Assembly: GCA_043819945.1 (NCBI GenBank)
Contig: JBDREH010000036.1
Coordinates: 82 to 64,081, forward strand
Source: Bacillota bacterium
GTDB lineage: Bacteria > Bacillota_I > Bacilli_A > Acholeplasmatales > Acholeplasmataceae
Reading direction: 5' to 3'
Length of the DNA stretch: 64,000 bases
Under the pieces are notes generated by a model that saw only the letters and a program-made list of their open reading frames with translations, did no database searches and was not told the origin of the DNA. Within the stretch, counting starts at the first letter, position 1, and each line of letters opens with the position of its first letter. Shown here in pieces: positions 16,605 through 36,555 of the stretch. Made by a program: the position numbers and the translations under genes.

Positions 16605-16910
16605 ATGCGAATTGAAAGACATCCAATTTTAGATTTTCCGAAAAAGCAAGCGATTTTTTTTATGTTTGAAGGCGAAAAAGTGATGGGATTTCATGGGGAT
16701 ACGATTGCTTCAGCACTTCATGCTTTAGGCATAAAAACACTCAGCTATAGTATCAGTAAAAATCGTCCACGAGGCTTTTACTGTGCAATCGGAAATTGTG
16801 CTTCATGCAATATGATTGTCAATGGAGTTCCCAATGTTAGAACATGCATAACATCCCTTGAAGAAAATATGATTGTTGAAAGACAAATCAACAAGGGGGT
16901 AATCAAATGA
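16605..16910 (+). CDS. (2Fe-2S)-binding subunit of flavin amino-acid dehydrogenase complex
   Basis: GDTIASALHA...RPRGFYCAIGNCASC...VRTC; similar to the sarcosine oxidase alpha N-terminus / Fer2_4. Confidence 0.88.
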   Translation: MRIERHPILDFPKKQAIFFMFEGEKVMGFHGDTIASALHALGIKTLSYSISKNRPRGFYCAIGNCASCNMIVNGVPNVRTCITSLEENMIVERQINKGVIK

Positions 16911-17998
16911 CCTATAAAGACTTGATCATTATTGGTGGTGGGCCATCAGGTCTATGTGCAGCTAAAACTGCTTTGGAAGCTGGAATCTCTGTTTTGATTA
17001 TTGATCGCAGTGAAAAACTCGGTGGTCAACTTGTCAAGCAAACTCATAAATTCTTTGGTTCTAAGGATCAGTATGCAAAAACTAGAGGATTTGATATTGC
17101 AGAGAAATTAGTTAAAGATTTGAAAAATTATGAAAATTTGCAGATATTGATTAATGCTACTGTTGTTGGATTGTATAAAGATAAGGTTGTCACTGTTTTA
17201 AACAACGAAAAATATGTGAGATATCAAGCGAAATCAATCATTGTTGCTACTGGAGCAAGTGAAAAGTTTTTGGCTTTTGAAAATAATGATTTACCTGGAA
17301 TCTATGGAGCTGGAGCTACACAAACGCTCATGAATAATTATGGAGTTCTACCTGGAAAAGAAGTTGTCATGATAGGAAGTGGGAACATTGGTCTTATTGT
17401 TTCCTATCAGCTAATGCAAGCCGGAGTCAAGGTCAAAGCCATCATTGAAGCTTCACCTACCATCGGAGGGTATAAGGTTCACGCTTCAAAAATGACTAGA
17501 CTAGGTGTTCCAATCTTGACATCAACAACAGTCAAAAAGGCAATTGGAGAAACAGAAATTAAGGCAATTGAAATCGTATCTTTAGATGAGAAATGGCAAG
17601 AATTACCTAATACGAGTCGAATCATTGAAATTGATGCTCTTTGCATTTCAGTCGGGCTATCACCAATGCATCAACTTTTATCGATGGTTGGAGCTCGCAT
17701 GAAATTTGTTTTTGAACTAGGTGGATTTGTTCCTATTATCGATGATAACAACCAAACAACACAAGACTCCATATTTGTTTGTGGTGATGCTGTAGGTATT
17801 GAAGAGGCAAGCTCAGCAATGATGGAAGGTTATATGACTGGACTGTTTGTTGCCAAACACTTGAATCATCCCCATCCAAATCATGAAAAATTAATTCAAT
17901 ACTATGAAGAACAACTCAAATTGCTAAGAGATGGTCCATTTGGAGAAAAGACTAAAGTAGGACTCAGTAAATTAAAAGAAGGTGACACACATGCTTAA
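16907..17998 (+). CDS. FAD/NAD(P)-dependent oxidoreductase subunit
   Basis: IIGGGPSGL, LGGQL, VATGA, GSGNIGL, GDAVGIEEA motifs. Confidence 0.88.
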   Translation: MTYKDLIIIGGGPSGLCAAKTALEAGISVLIIDRSEKLGGQLVKQTHKFFGSKDQYAKTRGFDIAEKLVKDLKNYENLQILINATVVGLYKDKVVTVLNNEKYVRYQAKSIIVATGASEKFLAFENNDLPGIYGAGATQTLMNNYGVLPGKEVVMIGSGNIGLIVSYQLMQAGVKVKAIIEASPTIGGYKVHASKMTRLGVPILTSTTVKKAIGETEIKAIEIVSLDEKWQELPNTSRIIEIDALCISVGLSPMHQLLSMVGARMKFVFELGGFVPIIDDNNQTTQDSIFVCGDAVGIEEASSAMMEGYMTGLFVAKHLNHPHPNHEKLIQYYEEQLKLLRDGPFGEKTKVGLSKLKEGDTHA

Positions 17999-18473
17999 TC
18001 ATAGAGGTATACCGACAAAAGCACAAGTGCTGTCAAGATTTCCTGATGCAAAAGCATTATTGCGTCCAAAAGCAATTCTCGAGTGTTATGAAGATATTCC
18101 TTGTAATCCGTGTGAAACAAGCTGTCCTTTTGATGCAATTTCGATAGGATCTAATATAAATCTACAACCACAATTGATTGTTGAGGCATGTACAGGTTGC
18201 GGTATTTGTGTGACTAGCTGTCCTGGACTGGCAATTATTGTTGCACAGATCATAAAAGATCAAGCAATGTTCAAACTTCCTTATGAATTTTTACCTTATC
18301 CAAAAAAGGATGAAATATGGCATGGTATCAATCGCAGTGGTGATGTCATCTGTGATGCGAAAATCCAAAGTGTTTTATTCAATAAAAAACAAGATCATAC
18401 CTTGCAGGTTACAGTTTTAGTACCTATAGATTACCTTTATAATTTTGTTACCATAAGAGCTAAACATGAATAA
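17991..18473 (+). CDS. 4Fe-4S dicluster ferredoxin-like subunit
   Basis: C..DIPCNPCETSCP and CTGCGICVTSCP; RBS supports ATG 17991. Confidence 0.88.
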   Translation: MLNHRGIPTKAQVLSRFPDAKALLRPKAILECYEDIPCNPCETSCPFDAISIGSNINLQPQLIVEACTGCGICVTSCPGLAIIVAQIIKDQAMFKLPYEFLPYPKKDEIWHGINRSGDVICDAKIQSVLFNKKQDHTLQVTVLVPIDYLYNFVTIRAKHE

Positions 18474-18747
18474 GCATAATATCATTATTTGTCGTTGTGA
18501 AGACATCACTTTACAACAAGTTCATGATTTACTTGAAGAAGGATATACAACCTTTGAAGATCTAAAGCGACTTTTACGAGTTGGCATGGGACCATGCCAA
18601 GCAAATACATGTGGGCATCTCATTCAAAGAGAAATAAGCAAGTATTTACAGGTCCCGGTTGAAGATGTTGCTATCCAAAAAGTTAGACCTATGACAATGG
18701 GCGTGCTACTCAAGATGATTGCGGAGGATCAAGAAGATGAAAACTAA
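18466..18747 (+). CDS. BFD-like (2Fe-2S) subunit
   Basis: ICRCEDIT...GMGPCQANTC...RP motif. Confidence 0.88.
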   Translation: MNKHNIIICRCEDITLQQVHDLLEEGYTTFEDLKRLLRVGMGPCQANTCGHLIQREISKYLQVPVEDVAIQKVRPMTMGVLLKMIAEDQEDEN

Positions 18748-19882
18748 CGTATTGATCATCGGTGCAGGTATCAGTGGTGTTAGTATCGCTTATAATCTTG
18801 CTAAAAAGGGTGTAAAAGCCATTCATGTCATTGATAAGGGGTATTTCACAAATGGAGCTACAGGACGCTGTGGTGCTGGTGTTAGACAACAGTGGGCGAC
18901 TGAAATCAACTGTGTTCTAGCGAAAATGAGTATAGAATTCTTCTCAAATGCAAAGAAAATACTAAAATATGAAGGCGATCTGGAGTTCAAACAGGAAGGC
19001 TATCTAATTCTTGCTACGACTCAAGATGAGCATGATCAGTTTACTAAAAATATAATGCTACAAAATTCACTGGGCATCCCATCCAAACAATTGACGGTTG
19101 AAGAGGCATTAAAAATTGTGCCACATTTAAATCCCAATGCTTTTATAAGTGCTACATTTTGTCAGACAGATGGTCATTTGAATCCATTTAAGATAACAGA
19201 AGCATATTACTTGGCTGCAAAGCGACTGGGTGTCACATTTTCCTTTTTTGAAGAAGCAGTTACGATTAAAACTCTTGAACACAAAATCGTTGAGGTTGTA
19301 ACCAATAAAGAAGTTTATCAAACAGAAACTGTTGTCAATGCTGCAGGTGGATATGCAAAAGAAATCGGAGATCTTGCTGGTATAGAGATTCCTGTCTATT
19401 CAGAAAATCATGAAATACTTGCTACGGAACCTATTGAAAAAATGCAAGGACCTATGGTCATTTCATTTTCTAAAAACATTTATTGTCAGCAAGTACCACA
19501 CGGTTCATTTTTGATTGGTAGAGGCACACCAAATGTTCCTCAAGGACATGATACGGAATCTTCATGGCAATTTTTAGATGAAATAGCAAAAACTGTGGTT
19601 GATGTCGTACCACTCATTGGCAATCTTCGTGTGATTAGGCAATGGGGAGGATCTTATAATATGTCTCCTGACCGTCAACCTATCATCAGTGATACGGATC
19701 AACTTGAAGGTTTCTACATGGCATGTGGATTCAGCGGTCATGGATTCATGTTTGCACCGATGACAGGATTATTATTGAGTGAAATGATTTTAAACGAAAA
19801 GCCAACAGTTGATATGACTTCACTTCATTTAGATCGTTTTAAGAATATAGATGTAAATCATATTGAAAAATCAGTTGTATAG
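18737..19882 (+). CDS. DAO-family FAD oxidoreductase, probable L-proline dehydrogenase catalytic subunit
   Basis: IIGAGISG, GATGRCGAGVRQQW, MSPDRQPII, GFSGHGFM; sits next to P5C dehydrogenase. Substrate is inferred. Confidence 0.75.
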   Translation: MKTNVLIIGAGISGVSIAYNLAKKGVKAIHVIDKGYFTNGATGRCGAGVRQQWATEINCVLAKMSIEFFSNAKKILKYEGDLEFKQEGYLILATTQDEHDQFTKNIMLQNSLGIPSKQLTVEEALKIVPHLNPNAFISATFCQTDGHLNPFKITEAYYLAAKRLGVTFSFFEEAVTIKTLEHKIVEVVTNKEVYQTETVVNAAGGYAKEIGDLAGIEIPVYSENHEILATEPIEKMQGPMVISFSKNIYCQQVPHGSFLIGRGTPNVPQGHDTESSWQFLDEIAKTVVDVVPLIGNLRVIRQWGGSYNMSPDRQPIISDTDQLEGFYMACGFSGHGFMFAPMTGLLLSEMILNEKPTVDMTSLHLDRFKNIDVNHIEKSVV

Positions 19883-19897
19883 AAAGGGAGTAATCAT

Positions 19898-21454
19898 ATG
19901 GCGATTTATACTTATCAGACAGAACCACTAACAGATTTCACAAACAAAGAGAATATCAAGAAGTATGAACAAGGATTAGCGATTGTTCAAGGGTATTTAG
20001 GGAGACATTACGATCTCATCATTAATGGAGAACGCATTAAAACCACTAAATCAATGACATCCTTAAATCCATCTGATTTTAAGGAATTTGTTGGTACCAT
20101 CTCACAAGCATCAAGAATTGAAACAAATCTTGCGATTGAATCTGCTCTTCGAGCATTTGAAACTTGGAAATATACCAAACCAGAAATAAGAGCTGATGTT
20201 TTATTTAAATCTGCAGCGATCATCAGAAGAAGAAAATTTGAATTTAGTGCATTAATGACCAAAGAAGCAGGCAAACCATGGCCTGAAGCTGATGCGGATG
20301 TTGCAGAAGCGATTGATTTTCTTGAATATTATGGACGTCAAATGATTGTACTCAACCGAGTAGACGACGCTGTTTTGAGTAGAAGAAATATCGAGCGCAA
20401 TGAATATAAATATATTCCACTTGGTGTTGGTGCGATCATTTCACCCTGGAATTTTCCTTTAGCAATTCTTTCGGGGATGACTTCTGCAGCAATTGTATCA
20501 GGGAATACTGTACTGCTTAAACCAGCAAGCACGACTCAAGTCATCGCATATAAATTCATTGAAGTTCTCGAAGAAGCAGGATTGCCAAACGGTGTTGTCA
20601 ATTTCTTACCTGGAAGTGGTGCTGAAATTGGTGATTATATCGTTGAACATCCCAAAATTAGATTCATTTCCTTTACAGGTTCTAAACAGGTTGGTATGGG
20701 AATATATGAAAAAGCAGCAAAAGTAAATCCAGGTCAGATATGGTTGAAAAGAGTCATTGCTGAAATGGGTGGTAAAGATGCAATTGTTGTCGATCGTGAA
20801 GCTGATCTTGATTTAGCTGCGGAATCAATTGTCAAATCTGCCTTCGGCTTTTCCGGTCAAAAGTGCAGTGCATGTTCAAGAGCAATTATCCATGAGGATG
20901 TTTATGATGTCGTCATTGAAAAGATGGTTAAGCTCACTGAACAGATTAAAGTAGGAAACCCTGAAGAACAAAGTATCTTTATGGGACCCCTAAATGACAA
21001 GAAAGCTTTTGAAAAGGTGACTTCGTATTTTGATATCGGTCATCGTGAAGGCAAATGTGTTATTGGTGGTAAGGCTAATCAATCAGTTGGTTACTTTGTA
21101 GATCCAACCATTTTCATTGATTTAGATCCTAATTCCACTCTAATGCAAGAAGAAATATTTGGACCGATTTTAGCTGTCTCTAAAGTAAAATCTTTTGATG
21201 AAGCCATTAAGGTCGCCAATAATACCGAATACGGTCTCACTGGATCAGTGATATCTAAAAACCGGATGCATTTGGAACAAGCAAGAAGAGATTTCCATGT
21301 TGGTAATCTCTATTTAAACCGCAAATGTACAGGAGCAATCGTGGGTTACCAACCTTTTGGTGGTTTCAACATGAGTGGAACTGACTCAAAAGCTGGTGGT
21401 CCAGATTATTTGATATTACACATGCAAGGTAAATCCGTATCTGAAGCACTATAG
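19898..21454 (+). CDS. pruA: L-glutamate gamma-semialdehyde (P5C) dehydrogenase
   Basis: ALDH motifs [38 protein letters not shown], and the RocA/PruA-type end [20 protein letters not shown]. Confidence 0.93.
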
Positions 21455-21490: not shown

Positions 21491-21535
21491 TTAAAAAAAG
21501 ACAAAGACTTGTTTACTCAGTTTTTGTCTTTTTAA
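21491..21535. terminator. Bidirectional terminator between the two catabolic operons
   Basis: ttaaaaaaagacaaagact...agtttttgtctttttaa. Confidence 0.75.
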
Positions 21536-22794
21536 TAGAATTCTTTTCGGATTAAGTTTAGAAAGATAGCAACAATAAGTAAATCAGCTGCTCCACCAAA
21601 GCTAATATGCTTTTGAATCATTTTTTTGTTAAAAGCTTTGAGTTGATTGATTTGAGTCACGTCAGTTTGTTTTAACTCTTCTTTAATCTCGTTATAATTT
21701 TCAATATTACCAGCTCGCTTGAGAAAGACAGTGTCTTCTGAAACTAAAATAAGGTATTTGAGCACATTCCTCAATGTTAAATCTTCATCATCAGTTAAGA
21801 GCTTCATGGCTGATTGGACTGATGAAATCCCCCGATAGGCTTCCCCACGTATACCTGTCATTTTATAGGTCTGATATGCTTTATGTCCTGCAGTTAATTG
21901 ATCTTTTTTGAAATCATCTAGGATCGTTTCAGAGATGATTTTGACGTTTGAATAAATACCATAAAAATCTTGTTGGTGACTTAAAGCATATCCTGTTGCA
22001 AGAAGCGCAAGTCCTAAAATGAAAATTAATCCTTTATATGCGTTAACCCCTTGAGTCATCTGTAACATTTCTTGCTCCGCAGCTATTCCTATGGGTCTTG
22101 TTTGCTCAAGAAGGTTACTTAGATGATCAGAAGTAAACCCAACTTCAAAAAGATCAACAAGATATGGCAGAATTGCTTTTTCAGCTTTCACCATCAATAG
22201 GTAATCCATATCCTGATGAGACCCTTGAGAACTCTTGCTAACAAGACCAAACTTGTCATCTAGATTTAATTCAGTAATGATTGCTTGATGAACGATTTTA
22301 GTGACGATATTTCTTAAATATGACCTAACCTGATTTTCAATAAAACCGATTAATGAATCCACAGGATGAGTTTGATTTCTCGAACAAAATAAAGCATCTT
22401 GATTACATAGATAACATTTACGATTTGGGATATGTAAATCAGTTCTTGATAAAGAAAATTGATTCAAATGAAAAACATCTAAATCGATAAAACGGCCTAA
22501 TGGATGGGTTTCTTCAATCATTACCATATGCTTTTTAATATCAAGCGAATTATTTGTATCCACTGCAAATAAACAATAAGGACCATCAGGACTTACTTTT
22601 ATTTCTGCTTTTTTCAGCGGATATAGATTTTGAATTTTCAGACAAAACAAGCGCACCAATAGATGCGCTTCACGGATATTTTTATTTGTACCAGGTATAT
22701 TGGCTTTGACAAGAATGATTGTATTATCTGGAGTCATTAGATGATTGATCTCATTGAGTCTATTTTCGCGTGCATCTAGCGGATCATTTTTCAT
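21532..22794 (-). CDS. citXG: CitX-CitG fusion (prosthetic-group synthase and holo-ACP synthase)
   Basis: N-terminal GRFIDLDV...RKCYLC (CitX) and C-terminal KGLIFILG, GIRGEA, SFGGAADLL (CitG); ATG 22794 overlaps citC stop. Confidence 0.85.
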   Translation of the reverse strand: MKNDPLDARENRLNEINHLMTPDNTIILVKANIPGTNKNIREAHLLVRLFCLKIQNLYPLKKAEIKVSPDGPYCLFAVDTNNSLDIKKHMVMIEETHPLGRFIDLDVFHLNQFSLSRTDLHIPNRKCYLCNQDALFCSRNQTHPVDSLIGFIENQVRSYLRNIVTKIVHQAIITELNLDDKFGLVSKSSQGSHQDMDYLLMVKAEKAILPYLVDLFEVGFTSDHLSNLLEQTRPIGIAAEQEMLQMTQGVNAYKGLIFILGLALLATGYALSHQQDFYGIYSNVKIISETILDDFKKDQLTAGHKAYQTYKMTGIRGEAYRGISSVQSAMKLLTDDEDLTLRNVLKYLILVSEDTVFLKRAGNIENYNEIKEELKQTDVTQINQLKAFNKKMIQKHISFGGAADLLIVAIFLNLIRKEFY

Positions 22795-23785
22795 CAAAAA
22801 TTGCCTTACCTTTAGATGATTTGAGATAGCGATATGTAACATTTGGAACATAGGATTTCAATACTTCATATTGATGATCTTTTGCTAGTTTTCTAACAAG
22901 TGAAGCACTGACTGTAACTGAATTCTTTTCTAAACGGTTGATGACAATCAACTGATCTTTCAGGATTTGTTTCATTGTTTCATTATAGGCATTTGTTGTA
23001 GGGTCTAGGGGTTCATCACCTACATATCTATAGTCAATTTCAAAGATTCTCATAAAGAAATGAAGGAAAATAGAAATATCAAGTTCCATAAAGAGTAAAG
23101 AAACCTCGTTTAATTCTTTTAGAAAGTAGGTTGGAAAAGTAGCTGAAGAAATGATATATTCCGTTGAGGGAAGTATATGAACATTAGTCATATGTTTTGT
23201 TGCTTTTTTCAAGAGCATCATCCGAGTTTCGAAAGAAAAAACAGATTTGTTTTCCTCAACTAAAAAGATGATAACATGATCATTACTTTTGGCACATGTT
23301 TCAATCAGATATAGATGTCCTAAAGTCACTGGATTACAGTTCATGACAATGGCAGCCTTTGTTCCATGAGATAAAGCTAAATCATTTTTCAGTTTCGTTA
23401 ATTTTTCTTCAATGGTATTGATATTGTTTTCAAACATAACAATCTTCTGATTCTCATAGATAAGTGAAAAAGCGAAATCAACAAAATAATGTTTACTTTC
23501 TTGTGTAGTAAAAAGAAAGTACTTTTCAATACCTTTTGCATTCAGTCTTTGGATTAAGGTTGTTAAAACAAGTGCCGTTAAATTTTCTCCTTGATAAAAA
23601 GAATCAATAGCAATCATTTTAATCACATTCTCATAAAGAGACCCAGTAGCTATCAATTGATTTTCATCATAGAATCCAATGGAAAGAGTAACCTTGTCTT
23701 CGAAACGAAGTCCTTGTTTTTCAAGTAACTGTTTCACATCTTCAAGTTCTTTTGGAGTGATACAATCTCTCATCTGATAATTCAT
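22784..23785 (-). CDS. citC: [citrate (pro-3S)-lyase] ligase homolog
   Basis: GNAT-like N-terminus; AIVMNCNPVTLGHLYL, YIISSATFPTYFLKE, RYVGDEP, VSASLVR. Confidence 0.92.
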   Translation of the reverse strand: MNYQMRDCITPKELEDVKQLLEKQGLRFEDKVTLSIGFYDENQLIATGSLYENVIKMIAIDSFYQGENLTALVLTTLIQRLNAKGIEKYFLFTTQESKHYFVDFAFSLIYENQKIVMFENNINTIEEKLTKLKNDLALSHGTKAAIVMNCNPVTLGHLYLIETCAKSNDHVIIFLVEENKSVFSFETRMMLLKKATKHMTNVHILPSTEYIISSATFPTYFLKELNEVSLLFMELDISIFLHFFMRIFEIDYRYVGDEPLDPTTNAYNETMKQILKDQLIVINRLEKNSVTVSASLVRKLAKDHQYEVLKSYVPNVTYRYLKSSKGKAIFDEK

Positions 23786-25308
23786 GAATGATCACTCCTA
23801 AGTTTATATATACTGTCGATGATTGTTCCATCCCGATAACGAACCACTCCTACCACTTGATCATCATGCAAAATAGATTGAGGATTACCAATCATTTGAT
23901 GTGCTTTGTTTAGCAAATCTTCAATCGTCAAAATTTTTAACTCCGAATGTTCAAGCTTCTTTAAAAGATCAGTTCTTTTAGGATTGATCGCAATACCTCT
24001 TTCAGTCACAAGACAATCGATAGACTCTCCAGGTGTTGTTACTGTTGTGACTTGCGCCTTAACCATGGAGGTTCTCGATTTCATCAAGTTGGTCGTGATG
24101 ATGGAAAGCTTTGCACCATAAGCGGTATCTGCATGACCGCCAGATCCACCAATTATTTTTCCTTTTGAATCGGTTGTAACATTGACGTTGAAATTTAAAT
24201 CAATTTCAGTTGCACCTAAAATAACAATATCTAAATCATTTACCATCGCTGATTTCTCCAGTGGATTTGCATACTTAGAAGCACTCATGAATTGATGATT
24301 TGGATTTCTTTTCAGTGAAGAAATAGCTTCATGATCAAAACACTGAACGTCGTATAATCGCTTAAATAAGCCAATTTCGTGCATCTCTACTAAGTAACTT
24401 GTAATACCACCAGAGGCAAATGATCCCTTGATGTTATGTTTAATCATGCTCTTTTTTAGTTCTTCAGCAACAGCTAGACTGGTACCGCCAGCTCCAGTTT
24501 GAAAACTCATATTTTGTTTTAAGTAACCCAGTTCTTCAATTAAGCGCGCTGTATCTTTGGCAATCTTGAGCTGAACTGGATCTCTTGTAGGTTTCGTAGT
24601 ACCAGAAACGATACCAGAAGCATCCCCAATCTTATCGACATTAATAATATAGTCAATATATTGGGCCTCAATTTCAATAGGGTCAATCTTGTTAACTAAA
24701 TGATCAGTGATGACTACTTTATGTTTTGCATAGAGCATATCAGCAATTGCATAACCTAATGTGCCACATGCATTTGGACCATCAATACCATTACCGTTAC
24801 CTTCATCATCACTATTTGGAACTGCGATAAATGCCACATCAATAATCAATTCTCCTGATTCGATCGCTCTTGGTCGTCCGCCATGTGTATCCATGACAAG
24901 TAAGTCCATTAAATATCCTTGACAGATAGCATCAGCAACCGGTCCGTTGATATAATTCGTATATATTTGAGTTACATTCTTATTTTTGATGAGTTCTACA
25001 AGAGGTTCATGAACCGGAAAAATGGCACTAGGAGCAAGTGTCATATTTGTTAAATTACGCTTTTTAATTTCTTCGAAAACCATATTCATGATACCATCAC
25101 CATTTCTCAAATGATGATGAAAAGAAAGAGTCATCCCATCATGAATGGGTATCATATCAAATAACTTTGATAGATTTTCGACTGATTTCTTGGTGTTTGT
25201 TGTCAACACTTTAGAAATTAAAGGTCTTTTTTTAATTTTAAGGAAATGATCAGCACCTTGATAAGGAATCATCCCTAAAGGTACATGACGATTCAAAGAG
25301 TTATTCAT
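23782..25308 (-). CDS. citF: Citrate/citramalate lyase alpha subunit (acyl-ACP transferase)
   Basis: SFHHHLRNGD, THGGRPRAIESG, FQTGAGG, FNVNVTTDS.G.IIGGSGGHADTA, VTTPGE. Confidence 0.92.
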   Translation of the reverse strand: MNNSLNRHVPLGMIPYQGADHFLKIKKRPLISKVLTTNTKKSVENLSKLFDMIPIHDGMTLSFHHHLRNGDGIMNMVFEEIKKRNLTNMTLAPSAIFPVHEPLVELIKNKNVTQIYTNYINGPVADAICQGYLMDLLVMDTHGGRPRAIESGELIIDVAFIAVPNSDDEGNGNGIDGPNACGTLGYAIADMLYAKHKVVITDHLVNKIDPIEIEAQYIDYIINVDKIGDASGIVSGTTKPTRDPVQLKIAKDTARLIEELGYLKQNMSFQTGAGGTSLAVAEELKKSMIKHNIKGSFASGGITSYLVEMHEIGLFKRLYDVQCFDHEAISSLKRNPNHQFMSASKYANPLEKSAMVNDLDIVILGATEIDLNFNVNVTTDSKGKIIGGSGGHADTAYGAKLSIITTNLMKSRTSMVKAQVTTVTTPGESIDCLVTERGIAINPKRTDLLKKLEHSELKILTIEDLLNKAHQMIGNPQSILHDDQVVGVVRYRDGTIIDSIYKLRSDHS

Positions 25309-25315
25309 GATTCAC

Positions 25316-26179
25316 CTATAGGAGATGCCACTTCTCAGCTTTTTCCAATAATTTTTTTGCGCGTTCAATAATTGGTTTGTCAATCATTTTACCGTCCACA
25401 GAAAAAGCACCTTTCTTTTCCTTTTCAGCTAAAAGGAGTGCCTGGAGTATTTTTTTAGCATGCTCTATTTCCTGTTGAGTGGGGACGAATACAGTATTCA
25501 CAATATCAATTTGGTTTGGATGAATACAAACCTTAGCAGTCATACCTAAACTTTTGGCGTTTATTGAATCCTTCATTAAGCCTTTCTCGTCTTGAGTATG
25601 CGTAAATGGTGTATCAATAGCATCGATTTGATGTGCTTTCGCAGCTAAAACAACGAGACTTCTCGATAGAAGAATCTCAAGACCAATCTCAGTCCGTTCA
25701 ATTTCCAAGTCTGTTGCAAGGTCTTCACCACCAAGTAAGAGGCCATTGACACGATTCACAGAAGCAATTTGTCCAACCTCTATAACAGACTGTGCATTTT
25801 CAATGATTGGCACAATTCCAATATTTTTGGTCATCTTTTTTTGTTTTTCAATTTTATCAAGTAGCTTTGATAAATAAAGGGTATCCTTATATGTAGCTTT
25901 TGGAAGCATAACTGTGTCAATTTTGTCATTGATTATCGTTTCAATATCATTTTTAGAAAAAGGGGTTTCCAAACTATTGATTCGAACGATAACTTCAAAA
26001 TTTTCTATTGGAAAAGTCTTGAGAAATTGCTCTAGTAAAAATAAAGCTGCATCCTTTTCAGAAAGCATGACTGCATCTTCAAGATCGAAGATAATTCCAT
26101 CAGCAGCAAAAATATCAGCATTTTGTAACATTGCTGGAGAATTTGCAGGTATAAATAATAGACTTCTACGCATGATCAT
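25316..26179 (-). CDS. citE: Citrate/citramalate lyase beta subunit
   Basis: RRSLLFIPANSP, FDLEDAV, VRIN, GGEDL, DTPF, CIHPNQI. Confidence 0.92.
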   Translation of the reverse strand: MIMRRSLLFIPANSPAMLQNADIFAADGIIFDLEDAVMLSEKDAALFLLEQFLKTFPIENFEVIVRINSLETPFSKNDIETIINDKIDTVMLPKATYKDTLYLSKLLDKIEKQKKMTKNIGIVPIIENAQSVIEVGQIASVNRVNGLLLGGEDLATDLEIERTEIGLEILLSRSLVVLAAKAHQIDAIDTPFTHTQDEKGLMKDSINAKSLGMTAKVCIHPNQIDIVNTVFVPTQQEIEHAKKILQALLLAEKEKKGAFSVDGKMIDKPIIERAKKLLEKAEKWHLL

Positions 26180-26426
26180 CACTCATCCTTCTTATAGCAG
26201 TCAATAATCTAGCTTTAATCGTATAATCTAGTGCTCCCTTGTCATTTATGGTTACATGGATATTTTTTATGTTGAGCTCTTTTAAAGTGTCTTGAATCAC
26301 TCTATTAATCTGATCTTTAAATTGATCATACACAATGCTTTTAATATCGATAGTCATGCCTGTTTGTTTTTTTACGGTAATTAAGCAATCATTTGATTCA
26401 AATGTACCAGCTGATGCTATTTTCAT
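26166..26426 (-). CDS. citD: Citrate/citramalate lyase acyl carrier protein
   Basis: AGTFESND (prosthetic-group Ser), DKGALD...KARL.TA. Confidence 0.92.
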   Translation of the reverse strand: MKIASAGTFESNDCLITVKKQTGMTIDIKSIVYDQFKDQINRVIQDTLKELNIKNIHVTINDKGALDYTIKARLLTAIRRMSDDHA

Positions 26427-26434
26427 CAAATCAC

Positions 26435-27679
26435 CTATTTTCTTGCGTTTGATCGTGCAATGACGCGTTCCATTTCATTTTTTACAATCATGAAACCACC
26501 GTCTACATCCATACCTGGCTTGGCTAAACATAGATCTGCTTGACAAGCAATGGCGACATTGGTTGTAGCGATTGCTGAAATATTAGTTTCATTGCATGTT
26601 CCACCACAATATGCACCAATATGATTTTCTTTACAATAGATGATTGCCTCAGCAATATTATTTAAACCACCTAAATCAGGTGTTTTTATTTGCAAAATGT
26701 GTCCTGCCTTATTGTCTGCAAAATACTTAATGTCATCTAGAGTATTGCACCATTCATCAGCAACAATTTCCACACCGATATTTTCGTCATCGATTCTTTT
26801 TCTGATGTCTCTTAGAGCAATCATTGTTCCTTCACGATCACCAGTATCGATAGGTCCTTCGAGTCTGATCTTAAATGGTTGTGCGACTTTTTCTAGTGAT
26901 TTGATGTAGCTTATGATTTTATCAAGATCATTATCAAAAGCAATACCAATCGTCCCATAAACATCAATATGCAAAATTGGCATATATTTATCATTTTGTC
27001 TATACTTGAGGATGCGTTCTTTCAACCACTTAACATAATCGAGTAACAATTCACCTCTATACCCCAATTTTTCCTTTACATTATTAATCAGTGCGTGAGG
27101 TAATGAATCTACTTCTTTGAGAATCATTTTATCAACATTGGTATAGCGGTCATCACCTGTTTGAGCAAAAATAGGAACTCTCTTTAGTTGTTTATATTCA
27201 GGATTATATTCATCTCTGATGACTTCTGCAAGAGTTCTTTTAGTAGATATGGCTACTGCACTGAGTAAAGCTTGTGTAATGCCATACCTGATTGCAGTAT
27301 GCATTCTTTGGCCATTGATTTGCATATGGTCGTATTTTTCTGAAAGCATCTTGAAGATAGATACATCTTCACCTATGAGTAGTGGCTTGATATGCTGCTC
27401 TATCCAAGGAAGATAATCTCCTGCTAAAAATAAAGGATCTCTTCCTCCAGCACCTGAATATTGAACAGCAGCACAATCGCCAATTCCAATATCACCATTT
27501 TCGAGAATGAGTTGGATGGAGATAGCTTCACCAGGAACTCTAATATTTGCAAAGCCAGATGTCATTGGACTTCCGACATATAGAAATCCATCATGATCTG
27601 CTCCGCGTTTGATTGCTTTTTGATCATCAAAGTAGAATCCTGTATAAGATTTGGTTAGAATTACGTCAATAATTTTCAT
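26435..27679 (-). CDS. mal: Methylaspartate ammonia-lyase
   Basis: [67 protein letters not shown]. Confidence 0.97.
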
Positions 27680-29148
27680 GTTCTATTTTTGTTTTTTGCT
27701 GGTCTGCCAATCAATTGACCTTGACTGACGGCATAAATGTCATCAACTGTCATCTGGAAGGTGATTGGTCTGCCTTCAACTCTTGACCTTTCTTTTAGTT
27801 TAGCCTTGTGAAATTCTCTAATTTCTTGATTCATTCCGAGATTGCCAAATTCTAAGATGCGAACGCAACCCTCATTATCTCTAGCGGGTAGAACTTTATT
27901 TGCATTTTGCTTGCTTGGAGCAAAGGGAACATCAAGAACTCCCATCTCGAATGCTTTGATTGTTCCTACAGCTAGGTCGTCATTGCCAAGTTTATAAACT
28001 TCTGTTAGAAGTGACTCAACTTCCTTGCGAATTTGTTTCATCTCATTTTTCAGTTTTGTTGTTGCTGGATATTTTTGATCTTGCAATAAGGAAACAACCA
28101 TTTTTGATGCACGAATGCCATATGCATTGATTTCTTTGGTGGGAATACCAATGGATTCATAAGGTGTTTTAGTAATCATCTTTGTCGCACCAGAAAGTGC
28201 TGCGACAGTTGATGCCATGGAAATCAAACCAGTTGCTGCCGCTTCATCTTGTGGAAATCCACCCATCCATTGATGGAAAACGGTTGTAACTGTCATATTT
28301 TCATAGCCATATTTTTTTAAATATTCTTCTGTGAGTTCTTGTAATATCCTAATAGAAGCAATATCTTGTATGACATTTCCACATTGCCCATAACCAACAG
28401 TAATGTTTTTTACTCCTTGCTCTGCTGCAAGAAGTGATTCAATAATGCCAATGGTTATTGAAATTGAAGGGGGAACGAGTGTTCCTGTCAAAGGTCCAAA
28501 TGGTTCACGGTTGATACTAATGCCATGATCCTCGTAATATCCAACTAAGCGATCACAATATTGCCAATAATAAAGAGAATCTGCAATCGATATGTTTTTT
28601 GCATAAGGTAAGTTGTAAGAAATGCCCCCTCCTTCATTGGAAGTCCAACCTGCTGCATGGATAATTTCTGCTAGTAATCTTCCATCAGGGGTACCATGTC
28701 TTGCTTGAAGAGGTACATTAACAGAGTCTAGTACTTGCTTACATGCGCGAACACCATGATTGACTGCAGGAAAACCATTGAGTAGTGACCTGCCCTCTTG
28801 AACGCTCATTTTGATACCTTCTTCAACTTCTTGATATCTGTTGTGTCGTGTATATGAATCAATAGTTGCAGGTAAAAAATCAGCCCCTGCTGCTTCTAGA
28901 TATTGCATCAATTCAATGTGCTCATTGAGTAATGCAACTCCGGCTCTTGGCTGTAAATAAGTTCTTTTCTGTTTTTTTGCTTCAATCAATTTTAATGCGA
29001 AATTTTTATGTGGGGGAACATTGCGTAGCGTTTCAACAGCAACATCCAAGTCTAATAATGGATCATTGCCTGTAGGCCATGATGATAAGACTTCCTTACG
29101 AACCTCTAAAAATTTTTCGAGCGGCCATTTCTTGTTAACGACTTGCAT
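27676..29148 (-). CDS. glmE: Glutamate mutase (methylaspartate mutase) E subunit
   Basis: [54 protein letters not shown]. Confidence 0.97.
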
Positions 29149-29158
29149 AATTTTTCTC

Positions 29159-30541
29159 CTAAATTTCAGTGATGTGTTTCTTCATAATTTTCAAAGCTAT
29201 TTCAGGATGATCCATGCTTAAAAGACCCATTGCTGACAAAATATAAGCTTTATCGAGTAAGAATTTTGGTGCTTTTGGTCTTAACTCCATGGATCTGCTT
29301 TCAATTTTTGTTGCTCTTTTCAGCATCTTAACAGGATCTTTACTGCTGATGACAACACCACCAGTTCCTATGAAGTAATTTGCCTTTGTTAAATCCTTGC
29401 CAACTTGATAATACATAATTCCCATAGGTGTATAAACACCTTTAAGTGTACCTACGTGTCTTGAGGTTGCTGTATCTATACATCTTGCAGCAAGGATGTC
29501 ATCAACGATATAATCATGATCAGATTCAGAAATAAAATCAATATGCTTAAATCTATTCGTTGCTTCCATGACTATATCAATGCCCTTTTTATTGAAATGG
29601 CTAATCTCAGAGGGGCTCATTGCACTTAAAACTCCAAGGGCAGAATAGCGCATACCCAAATCACCTTCAACTGTTCTTTTTGCAAATGGCTCTTCGAGTC
29701 CACTGAGTAGCGCATTCATCTGAGTAGGTAAACCAGCAGCCATTGAATAGATGTCTGTGGTTGCACCACCAACATCAGCAATCATTAAATCACCTAACCC
29801 TGATTCATTGTCAAAACCCGTCGAAAGTAGTTCTGCAGCCATTAATACGGCATTTGGAGTTGGCACAACCACTCTATCGATGGTTTTCTCTATTTTTTTG
29901 ATTCCTTTTGCTTCTATAATATTTTTAACAAATATTTCCTTGATTTTATCTTTAGCACTGTTAATGTTCAACACATTAAGACGTGGCATTACATTTTCAC
30001 AAATATAAAAATCCTTTTTTGCAGCTGATAGAATTTCTGTTATTTCATCTGCTGCATCTTTATTTCCAGCAAATACAATAGGTGCAATGACTGAAGAATT
30101 TGCCAGTTTTTTGGCATTATGAATGACACATTCAGAATTTCCTCCATTTGCTCCTCCAGCAAGTAGCACGATATCTATATTCTTATCTAGAATACTTTGA
30201 ACTTCGGCATTATTGATATTATGTGACAAAACAAGCTCAACCTTGGCTCCAGCACCTAGACAAACTCTAGTGGCAGCTTCGGTTGTCAGTTCTTCAACTA
30301 GACCAATTGCGACCATCTTTAAGCCGCCAGCAGCAGAAGAGCAAGCAATAATTCGATCAAAATCGATTTTTGATCCAATTTTCTCATATAGTCTTTCCAA
30401 AGCCTTTTCATACCCAATAACAATATTGGTATCTACAGTAGTTATCGCTTTAGAAGTAGCAATGATATCTTCACGATCCAAATCCACAGCTGTCAATTTC
30501 GTGAATGTTGATCCAAAATCAACCAATAAGTAATTAGGCAT
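29159..30541 (-). CDS. glmL: Glutamate mutase accessory/reactivating protein (MutL/GlmL)
   Basis: [41 protein letters not shown]; located between the S and E subunits. Confidence 0.93.
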
Positions 30542-30948
30542 TATGATTCTCCCAAATCTTCTTTAATCGTTTGCAAAACATCGTCAATTGTGACACCTGG
30601 TGGATAAATACGATCAAATCCCATATCCTTGAATCGCTTTTCAACTTCTATAAAATCTTGTTTGCCAACAACGATATTTCCTCCAACATACAATAAAACA
30701 CCATCAAGCCCAGCCTCATTACATTTATCTCTCATGCCACGGCAATCCAGTTCACCATGCCCGTATAAGGATGAGACTAAAATTAAATGAGCCGATGTTT
30801 CAATCGCTGCATTTATAAAATCCTCTTGAGACGCTAACACTCCAACGTTGACTACGTTGTATCCTTCTCGTGTTAACGTGTACTCAATGATTCTATTTCC
30901 GACAGCATGAACATCAGCTCCGATAACGCCAATAACTATGGATTTCAT
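30541..30948 (-). CDS. glmS: Glutamate mutase S (cobalamin-binding) subunit
   Basis: DVHAVG (DxHxxG), SSLYG, GG B12-binding motifs; GGAGGA RBS gives ATG 30948. Not glucosamine synthase. Confidence 0.97.
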
Positions 30949-30995
30949 TTTTCCTCCGGTCAAATTGCTCTTAATCTGGATTTTTTTCAAAAAAA

Positions 30996-31090
30996 ATAAA
31001 ACGTTTTCACACACTTGTATTTTAATACAAAGAGCAAAAAAAAACAACAGTTATCCGTTGTTTTGCGTTTAAGATTTTTAATGATATAAT
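30996..31090. promoter_or_regulatory. Divergent promoters of glm-mal-cit and fum operons, with cre-like site
   Basis: Minus strand: TTGTTT(31047-42)-17-TAAAAT(31024-19) then TGAAAACGTTTT (31009-30998). Plus strand: TTGCGT(31063-68)-16-TATAAT(31085-90) with TG. Confidence 0.6.
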
Positions 31091-31107
31091 ATGTGTAGGT
31101 GAAATGT

Positions 31108-31947
31108 ATGAGAAATGTGGATATTAAAGAGATAACAAACACGATCAAAGCCCTTGCTTTGGATGCGAATTGCAACATTGGAAAATCATTTATTGATGAG
31201 CTTAGAGAAGCAATAAAAAAAGAGAAATCCGAGATAGGGAGAAATGTTTTAGAGCAAATTATCGAAAATGATGAAATTGCTCTTGAAGCACATGAACCGA
31301 TGTGTCAAGATACGGGCATGGTGGTTGTTTTTTTAGAAGTTGGATATGATGTTCATTTCAACGGTGATGTCTATGATGCCGTCAATGAAGGTGTCAGACA
31401 AGCCTATCATGAAGGACTGCTTCGCAAGTCTGTTGCATTGCATCCCATTTCTCGTGGAAATACAAACGATAATACTCCTGCAATTATTCATATCAAATTG
31501 GTAGACGGCAACCAAATAAAAATCACACTCGCCCCTAAGGGTGGAGGAAGCGAAAATATGAGTCTCGTTAAAATGCTCATCCCATCTGATGGGATTGAGG
31601 GCATTAAAAAATTGGTGCTTCACACCATTTTTTATGCTGGAGGCAAACCTTGTCCACCGCTTGTTGTAGGGATTGGTATTGGGGGTAACCTAGAAAAATC
31701 AGCATTGATTGCAAAAGAAGCATTAATGCGTGATTTACATGACATTAATCCCGATCCTATTCTTGCTCAACTTGAGACGGAATTACTAGAAGAGATTAAT
31801 CGATTGGGAGTTGGTCCGATGGGATTTGGAGGCACAACAACGGCTTTAGCAGTTAAAATTGGTGCTTATCCTTGCCATTTCGCTTCTTTACCTATTGCGA
31901 TTAACATTCAATGCCATGCTTCAAGACATAAGTCAATCATGCTATAG
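31108..31947 (+). CDS. Class I Fe-S hydro-lyase alpha subunit (fumarase/tartrate dehydratase family; probable mesaconase)
   Basis: PMCQDTG, DNTPA, KGGGSEN, KPCPP, GPMGFGG, PCHFASLP...CHA. Confidence 0.9.
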   Translation: MRNVDIKEITNTIKALALDANCNIGKSFIDELREAIKKEKSEIGRNVLEQIIENDEIALEAHEPMCQDTGMVVVFLEVGYDVHFNGDVYDAVNEGVRQAYHEGLLRKSVALHPISRGNTNDNTPAIIHIKLVDGNQIKITLAPKGGGSENMSLVKMLIPSDGIEGIKKLVLHTIFYAGGKPCPPLVVGIGIGGNLEKSALIAKEALMRDLHDINPDPILAQLETELLEEINRLGVGPMGFGGTTTALAVKIGAYPCHFASLPIAINIQCHASRHKSIML

Positions 31948-31957
31948 GAGGTATGAA

Positions 31958-32509
31958 ATGAAACTAAAAACACCGATTACAAAACATGATATCCTAAATA
32001 TGAAAGTTGGAGATATTATCTATATAACTGGAACGCTTTATACTGGACGTGATGCTGCACATAAGCGTATGGTTGAAGCTCTTGAATCAGGATTTGAGCT
32101 TCCCATTGATTTTTCCGGTCAGGTCATTTACTATACAGGACCGACCCCGTCAAAACCGAATCGTCCAATTGGCTCATGTGGTCCAACTTCTAGTTATCGA
32201 ATGGATGCATACAGCCTACCTTTAATGAAAAAAGGGCTTAAGGTCATGATTGGCAAAGGTGACAGAAGTGATGCCTTTATTAAAGACATGATTGAACAAA
32301 AAGCTGTTTATTTACAAGCAGTTGGTGGAGCCGGAGCACTTTTATCAAGAAAAGTGGTCAAGAGTGAAGTGGTTGCCTATCCTGATTTGGGAGCTGAAGC
32401 AATTTATAAGCTTGAGGTTATCGATTTTCCTGCTATTGTTACCTACGATGTATATGGTGGTAATCTAATTGTTGATGAAGTTAAAAAATATCGAAATATT
32501 CAATTTTAA
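31958..32509 (+). CDS. Class I Fe-S hydro-lyase beta subunit (probable mesaconase)
   Basis: GRDAAHKR, GPTSSYRMD, IGKG, GGAGAL, DLGAEAI; GGAGG RBS gives ATG 31958. Confidence 0.9.
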   Translation: MKLKTPITKHDILNMKVGDIIYITGTLYTGRDAAHKRMVEALESGFELPIDFSGQVIYYTGPTPSKPNRPIGSCGPTSSYRMDAYSLPLMKKGLKVMIGKGDRSDAFIKDMIEQKAVYLQAVGGAGALLSRKVVKSEVVAYPDLGAEAIYKLEVIDFPAIVTYDVYGGNLIVDEVKKYRNIQF

Positions 32510-34240: not shown

Positions 34241-34329
34241 ATTGTGATTATGACTAGACATTGTATATATATCTAGGCGTATAATAGAATTAAAGTTACG
34301 AAGAATTGAATAAAAGGAGCGCTTTAAAA

Positions 34330-35367
34330 ATGGAAATGACAGCAGTGATTAAAGAATCCAGAGAACCTGGTTTTAAGATTGTAAAAAAGCAGGTCCCAGA
34401 TGTTTTAGGTCCAAATGAAGTTTTGATTAAAGTACTAGCCACATCGATTTGTGGGACAGATGTCCATATCTATAAATGGGACCGATGGAGTCAAAATCGG
34501 ATCAAACCACCACTTACTGTCGGACATGAATTTAGTGGCAGAGTTTTAAAAATTGGAAGCAGTGTTAAACAAGTCAAGGTTGGAGATATTGTTTCAGCTG
34601 AGACGCACATCGTTTGTCACGAATGTGAGTTTTGCCGTAGAGGTGAATATCACATTTGCAAAAACACAAAAATTATCGGTGTGGATACAGATGGTTGTTT
34701 TGCAGAATATGCAAGAATGCCAGCTGAAAACTTGATTATCAATCATGCAGATGTGGATCCCAAGTATTTATCAATTCAGGAACCATTAGGCAATGCAGTT
34801 CACACCATGCTTCACTTTCCAATAACAGGTAAAACAGTGGCAATCGTTGGTTGTGGACCCATCGGAATGATGGGTGTTAACATTGCTAAAGTTGTTGGAG
34901 CCAGTAAGATTATTGCTATCGAAATCAATGATTATCGGATTAAGCTTGCAAAAGAACTTGGGGCCGATGTCATTATCAATCCACTCAAGGAAAATGTCAT
35001 TACTCGTGTGTTAGAAGAAACCGATGGCATGGGTGTAGATATTGTTGCAGAATTTTCAGGAAACAAACAGGCTATTGAGGATTCCTTTAAATATGTCAAG
35101 GCTGGCGGGAAAATGTCAATGCTTGGTATTACTCCACAAAATATCGAATTCGACTTATCTAACGATGTCGTTTTCAAAGGGATAACAATTTATGGTGTTG
35201 TAGGCCGTATATTACCCGAAACATGGCAACAGGTTACTGGCCTTGTTGAAAGTGGTAAATTGGATTTAGAAAAGATTGTTACACATACTTTTTCACTTAC
35301 ACAAATGGATGAAGCGATGCAAATCATGATTTCAGGAAATAGTGGGAAAGTTGTATTAATTCCATAA
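34330..35367 (+). CDS. tdh: L-threonine 3-dehydrogenase
   Basis: ICGTDVHIY.WD.W, GHEF, CHECEFC...C, QEPLGNAVHT, GCGPIG; adjacent to kbl. Confidence 0.95.
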   Translation: MEMTAVIKESREPGFKIVKKQVPDVLGPNEVLIKVLATSICGTDVHIYKWDRWSQNRIKPPLTVGHEFSGRVLKIGSSVKQVKVGDIVSAETHIVCHECEFCRRGEYHICKNTKIIGVDTDGCFAEYARMPAENLIINHADVDPKYLSIQEPLGNAVHTMLHFPITGKTVAIVGCGPIGMMGVNIAKVVGASKIIAIEINDYRIKLAKELGADVIINPLKENVITRVLEETDGMGVDIVAEFSGNKQAIEDSFKYVKAGGKMSMLGITPQNIEFDLSNDVVFKGITIYGVVGRILPETWQQVTGLVESGKLDLEKIVTHTFSLTQMDEAMQIMISGNSGKVVLIP

Positions 35368-35382
35368 ACAAAGGAGGATATT

Positions 35383-36555
35383 ATGTCATATCTACTATTA
35401 AGGGTTAATGAACTTAAAGCAGATGGTGTTTATCGCAAGTTGCCAATTAATGATGGTCCTTGTGATGCCGTAATCAAGCTTAACGGAAAACCAGTTATCA
35501 ACCTTTCGTCCAATAATTATTTAGGATTTGCAAATCATCCTAGAATCAAAAAAGCTGCAAAGGACGCAATCGATAAATTTGGTGTCGGATCCGGTGCAGT
35601 GCGCACGATTGTGGGGAATATGACGATTCATGAAGAACTTGATCGTTTAATAGCACGCTTTAAACATGAAGATGCTGCTGTAGTGTTTCAATCGGGATTC
35701 GCAACTAATGCAGGAGTGATTCAAGCAATAACCGATGAGCATGACTTGATTGTCTCAGATGAGCTGAATCACGCTTCAATTATCGATGGAATCAGGTTAT
35801 CTAAGGCTAGCAGAGCCGTATATAAGCATAGCGACATGGCAAGTCTCGAGACTGTATTAAAAGAAAGAAGAGAACATTATCACAATGTATTAATCATTAC
35901 TGACGGTGTTTTTTCGATGGATGGTGATATTGCAAAATTACCTGAAATTGTTAAATTAGCTAAAAAATATAAAGCATTGACGTATGTTGACGATGCACAT
36001 GGATCAGGTGTTCTTGGTCGTTCAGGCAGAGGCACTGTCGACCACTTTGGTCTCCACGGACAGGTCGACTTCATCGTAGGAACTTTGTCCAAGGCTATTG
36101 GTGTTGTTGGTGGTTATGTATGTGGATCTTTAGCCATGCGTGACTGGTTATTGCACAGAGGAAGACCATTATTGTTTTCAACAGCCATGATGCCTTCTGC
36201 AGTTGCAGCCATTATTGAAGCATTTCACATGCTTGAAGAATCTACAGATTATACCGACAGATTATGGGATAATGCTCGTTATTTCAAAAAAAAATTGGTT
36301 GAACATGGATTTGACATTGGTCAAAGTGAAACACCCATCACACCTATCATGATTGGCGATGAAAGTACAACGATGGAGTTTTCTAAGAATTTGCTTAAAT
36401 ATGGCGTGTTCGTCTCAGCCATTGTTTTCCCCACTGTACCCAAGGGTAAGGGAAGAATTCGTTGCATGGTATCAGCATTACATTCCAAAGAGCAATTGGA
36501 TAAAGCAGTTGAGATTATTTACAAGACTGCAAAGAAAATGGAATTAATTGCCTAG
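35383..36555 (+). CDS. kbl: Glycine C-acetyltransferase (2-amino-3-ketobutyrate CoA ligase)
   Basis: [39 protein letters not shown]. Confidence 0.92.

Follow-up and report, generated by a model that had tools for sequence, protein, structure and literature searches.

A candidate methylaspartate pathway of glutamate catabolism in a Peloplasma-like member of the Acholeplasmataceae

When genes resembling those of citrate lyase and fumarate hydratase lie in one cluster with genes for glutamate mutase and methylaspartase, do they serve citrate and fumarate, or do they, as citramalate lyase and mesaconase, complete the methylaspartate pathway by which glutamate is broken down? The question is raised by eleven genes (glmS, glmL, glmE, mal, citD, citE, citF, citC, citXG, mesA, and mesB) in a 64,000-nt stretch of contig JBDREH010000036.1 (assembly GCA_043819945.1), hereafter called the window, to which all positions refer unless another contig is named. 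The host, a wall-less groundwater bacterium, has a genome of 1.58 Mb (99.97% complete) and belongs to the Acholeplasmataceae, within the genus of Peloplasma aerotolerans; a first-pass annotation, which had guessed at a mollicute-like lineage and proposed a check of the taxonomy, was right on this point. The locus very probably encodes the complete methylaspartate pathway, and four independent computational lines speak for a citramalate lyase and a mesaconase and against a citrate lyase and a fumarase. The case is built on observed gene identities, catalytic motifs, synteny, clade membership, genome content, and phyletic co-occurrence. The step from citrate lyase to citramalate lyase, and from fumarase to mesaconase, has already been published for clostridia; what is new here is the Peloplasma-like lineage of Acholeplasmataceae, and a literature search found no paper linking the methylaspartate pathway to Acholeplasma, Tenericutes, or Mollicutes.

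Gene identities and order

Families were assigned with the curated cut-offs of NCBIfam and with Pfam, and open reading frames (ORFs) were listed under translation table 11. All eleven genes are intact under this table, so that the mollicute genetic code 4, which was also considered, proved unnecessary. Nine genes follow each other on the minus strand in the order glmS-glmL-glmE-mal-citD-citE-citF-citC-citXG, and mesA and mesB are transcribed from the plus strand, divergently from glmS, with a control region of 156 bp (30952..31107) in between. With the starts refined from the sequence and the translations (glmS at ATG 30951 behind GGAGG, mesA at ATG 31108, mesB at ATG 31958, and citXG probably at M20), the junctions range from a 17-nt overlap to a 10-nt gap. 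The first-pass annotation had described such an abutting minus-strand run, a two-subunit class I hydro-lyase divergent from a region of about 160 bp, and gene candidates for all four steps and for prosthetic-group assembly. Its layout stands, and the glm, mal, mesAB, citDEF, citC, and citXG genes would provide the candidates.

The first step, from (S)-glutamate to (2S,3S)-3-methylaspartate, would be catalyzed by an adenosylcobalamin (AdoCbl)-dependent glutamate mutase. Its small, B12-binding subunit GlmS (136 aa; 30541..30951, minus strand, as are all genes of the run) scores 208.6 bits with NF002612 (cut-off 110) and 195 bits against MutS of Clostridium tetanomorphum (1BE1), and retains the cobalamin-binding motif DxHxxG as GADVHAVGN. 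The catalytic subunit GlmE (27676..29148) scores 731 bits with TIGR01503 (cut-off 390) and 717 bits against GlmE of C. cochlearium (6H9E/1CCW). GlmS and GlmE are thus both above cut-off with the B12 motif present, as in an AdoCbl-dependent glutamate mutase, and the accessory, reactivase-like protein GlmL (29159..30541; NF040745, 593 bits against a cut-off of 475) would keep this enzyme active. In the second step, the 3-methylaspartate ammonia-lyase Mal (26435..27679) would convert 3-methylaspartate to mesaconate and ammonia. Mal scores 579 bits with TIGR01502 (cut-off 286) and 605 bits against the crystallised methylaspartase of C. tetanomorphum (1KCZ). Alignment to the latter shows H194, D238, E273, D307, Q329, and K331 to be kept, including the catalytic residues (K331 and H194) and the Mg ligands (D238, E273, and D307).

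The third step, from mesaconate to (S)-citramalate, would fall to MesAB, an oxygen-sensitive Fe-S hydro-lyase of class I that is proposed to be a mesaconase. Its alpha subunit MesA (31108..31947, plus strand) scores 395 bits with NF004885 (cut-off 276) and 364 bits with Pfam Fumerase, and its beta subunit MesB (31958..32509, plus strand) scores 238.3 bits with NF005310 (cut-off 238) and 166.8 bits with TIGR00723 (cut-off 145); both subunits thus reach the family scores of class I fumarate hydratases. The fourth step would be carried out by the lyase CitDEF. The gamma subunit CitD (26166..26429) is its acyl carrier protein (ACP), with 91.7 bits for TIGR01608 (cut-off 63.5) and with the prosthetic-group serine retained (AGTFES aligns with E. 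coli AGTLES, Ser14). On this carrier, the alpha subunit CitF (23782..25308), a proposed citramalate:acetyl-ACP transferase, would exchange acetyl-S-ACP for citramalyl-S-ACP and release acetate. The beta subunit CitE (25316..26182), a proposed (S)-citramalyl-ACP lyase, would then split the citramalyl thioester to pyruvate and regenerate acetyl-S-ACP. The phosphoribosyl-dephospho-CoA arm of CitD would be made by CitG (triphosphoribosyl-dephospho-CoA synthase) and attached by CitX (holo-ACP synthase), which are fused in citXG (21532..22851; probable start M20 at 22794), and the ligase CitC (22784..23785), which acetylates the thiol of the prosthetic group, would prime the arm with acetate. The citXG product matches Pfam CitX (120 bits) and CitG (147 bits) and scores 116.5 bits with TIGR03124 (cut-off 105), CitG being below the NCBIfam curated cut-off. 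CitC scores 229.9 bits with TIGR00124, below the cut-off of 262, and 206 bits with Pfam Citrate_ly_lig. Pyruvate would be converted by pyruvate:ferredoxin oxidoreductase (PFOR) to acetyl-CoA, and then to acetate (AckA) or butyrate (Ptb/Buk) with a gain of ATP; genes for PFOR (48% identical to YdbK), AckA, butyrate kinase, and phosphate butyryltransferase are all present in the genome.

The order of the nine genes is kept in all of the 20 relatives fetched at full length (20/20), which represent at least six genera; in 15 of these, mesAB and glmS are transcribed divergently. Identities lie between 50 and 94%, with GlmS and GlmE at the upper end (about 90%) and CitXG at the lower (about 45%), and every frame is intact. 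Given this conservation of the nine-gene run, the arrangement is not due to chance.

Substrates of the lyase and the hydro-lyase

The precedent comes from the glm-mal cluster of C. tetanomorphum, C. tetani, and other clostridia (glmS-mutL-glmE-mal, mesAB, citDEF, and citCXG), in which CitDEF with CitCXG, and MesAB, were designated citramalate lyase and mesaconase (Kronen & Berg 2015, PMC4682846; Buckel & Bobi 1976 cited therein). The citrate lyase of E. coli, by contrast, has no citramalate lyase activity (PMC4682846). The window cluster has the same gene set, prosthetic-group genes and two-subunit class I hydro-lyase included. It differs from the clostridial one in its wall-less host with a 1.58-Mb genome, in the fusion of CitX and CitG, in the linkage to a pyrroline-5-carboxylate (P5C) dehydrogenase gene, and in having a conserved 16-bp palindrome and no GntR regulator.

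The first of the four lines of evidence is the score of CitE. The genome holds a single CitDEF set with one CitE, which is 36% identical to E. coli CitE and scores 252.9 bits with the citrate lyase equivalog TIGR01588, far below the cut-off of 443.4; no CitE in the whole genome exceeds that cut-off. CitE keeps E35, D36, R67, E128, D154, and D268, which are invariant across the citrate-type and citramalate-type clades alike.

The second line is the phylogeny of CitE, for which loci from 80 named genomes with flanks, among the matches listed, and from 29 relatives of the same order were scored for glm, mal, mes, and cit genes. In the maximum-likelihood tree, 40 glm/mal-linked, 3 mesAB-linked, and 1 short-contig CitE make up one side of a branch (UFBoot 100, SH-aLRT 98.5), whereas the E. 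coli-type CitE, found with CitC and without glm or mal, form a separate clade (support 100/99). The window CitE shares the first clade with the glm/mal-linked CitE of Clostridiaceae, Oscillospiraceae, and Fusobacteriaceae, but lies in a subclade of its own made of Mycoplasmatota only (32 members, support 98/90), which argues for a long vertical residence in the lineage rather than a recent transfer. Its closest named homologues are from Acholeplasmataceae and 'Tenericutes' metagenome-assembled genomes and from P. aerotolerans (68% identity). A third large and well-supported clade of CitE has a CitF partner without detectable CitC/CitXG, glm/mal, or citrate carriers; it comprises 44 loci from Bacteroidota, Acidobacteriota, Ignavibacteriota, Planctomycetota, and others. 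Mycoplasma sp. P36-A1, with a complete chromosome of 1.97 Mb, carries glmS-L-E, mal, citDEF, and mesAB, and its CitE groups with Clostridiaceae and not with the clade of Acholeplasmatales, pointing to an independent acquisition.

The third line is genomic context and content. A citrate carrier (2HCT or CitT) or the alpha subunit of oxaloacetate decarboxylase (OAD-alpha) is found within 10 kb of 10 of the 13 citrate-type loci versus none of the 16 citramalate-type loci. The first-pass annotation had seen no citrate transporter or oxaloacetate decarboxylase nearby, and this extends from the window to the whole 1.58-Mb genome, in which tblastn found no CitT, 2HCT carrier, or OAD-alpha. An E. coli DcuC probe gave no match either, and tblastn of the genome with E. 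coli queries, which could miss very divergent analogues, detected no FrdA, FrdB, AspA, FumC, or Mdh. MesAB is the only class I hydro-lyase copy in the genome, and malic enzyme is the only enzyme of a fumarate or malate context that was found. With no citrate carrier, OAD, FumC, AspA, FrdAB, or Mdh, there is no citrate or fumarate pathway for CitDEF and MesAB to serve. The malic enzyme gene (its product 51% identical to a Firmicute one) lies on contig C25 of the host assembly, at 64900-71040, together with genes for a tryptophanase-family lyase, butyrate kinase, and phosphate butyryltransferase, and an IS1634 transposase follows this group at about 71.4-73.1 kb.

The fourth line is the phyletic profile across 201 evenly sampled genomes of the order. 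Mal is above cut-off in 36 of them, and the genomes with a CitE of at least 44% identity are precisely these 36. All 36 also have MesA, which in the two Mal-bearing families is confined to them; it is found, however, in 51 Mal-negative genomes belonging to two other families, so the hydro-lyase family is not exclusive to the pathway. In three genomes of 0.5-0.6 Mb from the same family as the host, Mal is absent but a distant CitE-like gene (37-39% identity) is present, the sole CitE in the sampled order that is unlinked to the pathway.

CitE score, clade, context with genome content, and phyletic profile all lend support to the proposal of the first-pass annotation that the 'citrate lyase' is a citramalate lyase, and the mal-linked and citrate-operon CitE, whose phylogeny it had suggested, do form two separate clades. 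Its companion proposal, that the 'fumarase' is probably a mesaconase, is favoured by a genome without enzymes making or using fumarate, together with the CitE evidence. Judged from these comparisons of sequences, CitDEF would be specific for (S)-citramalate and MesAB for mesaconate.

Two characterized systems of enterobacteria offer further comparison. The citrate lyase CitCDEFXG of E. coli and Klebsiella (EC 4.1.3.6) shares with the window lyase the subunit architecture, the ACP serine, the prosthetic-group genes, and the ligase. It differs by its CitE, that of the window falling below its cut-off and in another clade, and by its CitT, CitS, or OAD partners, which are missing beside the glm-mal-linked genes of the window. 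The glm-mal-fumD cluster of E. coli O157:H7 likewise combines glutamate mutase, methylaspartase, and a class I hydro-lyase, FumD, that was shown to hydrate mesaconate (PMC4682846). FumD is a single chain without linked CitDEF, and the fate of citramalate is unresolved there, whereas the window lyase is encoded in the same operon as the glm and mal genes.

Cobalamin supply, flux, and alternatives

A glutamate mutase calls for AdoCbl, and the first-pass annotation had proposed to search the genome for B12 uptake. The search was positive. A single cobalamin riboswitch is present (RF00174, 88 bits; C25:82621-82795), and such a riboswitch occurs in all 16 genomes of the genus, in 30 of the 36 Mal-positive genomes, and in just one Mal-negative genome of the family. 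It precedes three genes, with which it spans C25:82621-85105. Their products, a lipoprotein of 393 aa, a membrane-anchored protein of 158 aa, and a polytopic membrane protein of 181 aa, have no Pfam or NCBIfam match. The lipoprotein is identified by the annotation of its homologues and by its predicted fold only. The homologues are annotated as DUF4430, and the AlphaFold model (pLDDT 92.1) has the beta-domain of human transcobalamin as its top match (5NO0; E = 1e-4, TM 0.71), with an alpha/alpha helical barrel that aligns to transcobalamin and intrinsic factor. It resembles these mammalian proteins in its predicted beta-domain and alpha/alpha barrel, but has the beta domain first, is a riboswitch-controlled lipoprotein, and is 13-19% identical to them, its B12 binding being putative. 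The operon is a candidate system for the capture and uptake of B12, with homologues almost confined to Acholeplasmataceae-like genomes, and would probably import the vitamin for a host that cannot make it.

Imported B12 would be adenosylated by PduO (TIGR00636, 132 bits against a cut-off of 108), an adenosyltransferase present in all 16 genomes of the genus, so that riboswitch, transcobalamin-like lipoprotein operon, and PduO together account for a supply of AdoCbl. The PduO gene lies between those for lysine 5,6-aminomutase (KamDE) and D-ornithine 4,5-aminomutase (OraSE), which brings the AdoCbl-dependent mutases of this organism, with glutamate mutase, to three. These genes are part of a fermentation block (C25:108000-127600) that comprises Kce, Kdd, lysine 2,3-aminomutase, KamDE, PduO, Ord, OrtAB, and OraSE with a GlmL-like protein, and also two racemases, arginine deiminase, ornithine carbamoyltransferase, and carbamate kinase.

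As to the direction and size of the flux and the source of glutamate, we infer a catabolic route fed from inside the cell. Glutamate would probably come from peptides, from proline, and from histidine rather than from the uptake of free glutamate. For proline, a glutamate-forming module lies next to citXG on the plus strand (16907..21454). Its last gene encodes P5C dehydrogenase (19898-21454; NF002852, 850 bits against a cut-off of 648), and its other products are sarcosine-oxidase-like FAD/Fe-S dehydrogenase subunits with soxA/soxB-like and ferredoxin matches, a candidate proline dehydrogenase. P5C dehydrogenase adjoins citXG in most genomes of the genus. For histidine, the genes for hutH, hutU, glutamate formimidoyltransferase, hutI, and cyclodeaminase are found at C25:~76800-82552, directly upstream of the cobalamin riboswitch; through them, histidine can supply glutamate to the methylaspartate route, as it does in C. 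tetanomorphum.

Several points weigh against this reading, some bearing on the use of the pathway and others on its substrates. P. aerotolerans M4Ah, which carries the identical cluster, did not grow on glutamate, citrate, fumarate, casamino acids, or peptone in a vitamin-supplemented medium; it grew on tryptone, yeast extract, and pyruvate, and its description is silent on the pathway and on B12 (PMC11122141). The route may thus handle only internally made glutamate, or be minor. E. coli probes found no GltS or GltP homologue in the genome, peptide and ABC-type glutamate importers not having been looked for. The window sequence recurs in groundwater metagenomes of several studies, and groundwater metatranscriptomes contain contigs 100% identical to mal and glmL; these are few, short (150-210 nt), and of low depth (2-4), could be DNA carry-over, and expression is not claimed. 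On the side of the substrates, CitF (46% identical to E. coli CitF) scores 556.7 bits with the citrate-lyase alpha equivalog TIGR01584 and so passes its cut-off of 501.45. A comparison of 44 citramalate-type with 14 citrate-type CitE yielded eight candidate specificity-determining positions, all of them conservative (for example P192/V, N229/H, and I31/M); no position stood out as a carboxylate-binding or specificity switch, and no mechanism is claimed. Finally, class I fumarases are promiscuous and MesA homologues occur in the 51 Mal-negative genomes, so sequence alone cannot separate mesaconase from fumarase.

The growth and RNA data would fit with a pathway that is intact but cryptic or minor in the genus, a conserved accessory route rather than a fermentation supporting growth. 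This is improbable, because the nine genes and mesAB have remained intact in all 20 relatives, an operator-like palindrome and a promoter are conserved between glmS and mesA (see below), and the apparatus for B12 uptake, adenosylation, and riboswitch control is present in all 16 genomes of the genus. Moreover, the missing GltS and GltP account for the failure on free glutamate while tryptone supports growth.

More improbable still is that CitDEF truly acts as a citrate lyase and MesAB as a fumarase, two enzymes that would serve the fermentation of citrate or C4-dicarboxylates and merely lie beside glm and mal. The scores of CitF and of the hydro-lyase would allow it, and a phylogenomic survey of environmental Tenericutes took the citrate lyase genes for those of a tricarboxylic acid (TCA)-type enzyme, reading them as reductive-TCA fixation of CO2 (PMC7301438). 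The alpha-subunit model TIGR01584, however, does not separate citrate from citramalate lyase, and CitE, which is below its cut-off and outside the citrate-operon clade, never occurs in this type without Mal among the 201 genomes. The genome offers neither citrate carrier nor OAD, Mdh, Frd, aspartase, or FumC, and P. aerotolerans uses neither citrate nor fumarate (PMC11122141). For the sampled Acholeplasmatales, the reductive-TCA reading is contradicted by these data.

Least probable of all is a pathway run in reverse, with glutamate made from pyruvate, acetate, and ammonia in an organism without a TCA cycle: the operon is flanked by glutamate-producing catabolic genes (P5C dehydrogenase), and the genome has hut genes and modules for the breakdown of lysine and ornithine, as is typical of amino-acid fermenters. 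Each of the four steps can be reversed in vitro, but the equilibrium of the lyase favours cleavage at millimolar concentrations. The absence of a reported TCA cycle in the genus (PMC11122141) would speak for the reverse direction.

With the methylaspartate pathway as the preferred reading, a broader picture emerges that is somewhat more likely than not. In it, a clade of environmental Acholeplasmatales formed by Peloplasma and at least five other genera (36 of the 201 genomes) would consist of B12-scavenging amino-acid fermenters rather than sugar-fermenting 'minimal' mollicutes. Their three AdoCbl mutases, for glutamate, lysine (5,6-), and D-ornithine (4,5-), would be fed by a previously undescribed uptake through a transcobalamin-like, riboswitch-controlled lipoprotein, and the reductive-TCA 'citrate lyase' of the survey would be a citramalate lyase. 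For a poorly known lineage, the assignment of the pathway corrects the annotation of genes that were deposited under the names 'CoA ester lyase', 'citrate lyase', and 'fumarate hydratase'. Wall-less bacteria of 1.5-2 Mb would then be inhabitants of groundwater and mud that feed on peptides and amino acids and rely on B12 from their neighbours, which would change both their cultivation (with B12 and peptides added) and the ecological role assigned to them. The finding also points to a compact family of candidate B12-binding lipoproteins, and P. aerotolerans is a cultured, non-pathogenic organism in which the still unproven gene assignment of citramalate lyase could be tested.

Control region and neighbouring genes

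The spacer between glmS and mesA contains a perfect palindrome of 16 bp, TTGTATTTTAATACAA (31015-31030), which occurs only once in the host genome, and a promoter (TTGCGT-N17-TATAAT) that faces mesA. Both are conserved across genera in an alignment of 16 orthologous spacers, the palindrome in at least four. The palindrome resembles an operator of the GntR/FadR type, but no regulator gene is present within the cluster. A terminator-like hairpin (31041-31064) shows only partial conservation among the relatives and overlaps the -35 box of mesA, and is therefore not called an attenuator. A promoter scan of the whole locus was uninformative, with 52 promoter-like sites versus 47.2 expected.

Two further loci of the window lie outside the cluster and its proline module. 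An ORF of 604 aa at 13998-15812 has no NCBIfam match and has sub-threshold Pfam matches only (RCK-like and DUF423). On the other side, downstream at 34306-36555, are genes for L-threonine 3-dehydrogenase (450 bits, cut-off 380) and for an enzyme of the glycine C-acetyltransferase/Kbl family. This pair corresponds to a module for the conversion of threonine to glycine and acetyl-CoA, and belongs to the same amino-acid catabolic island.

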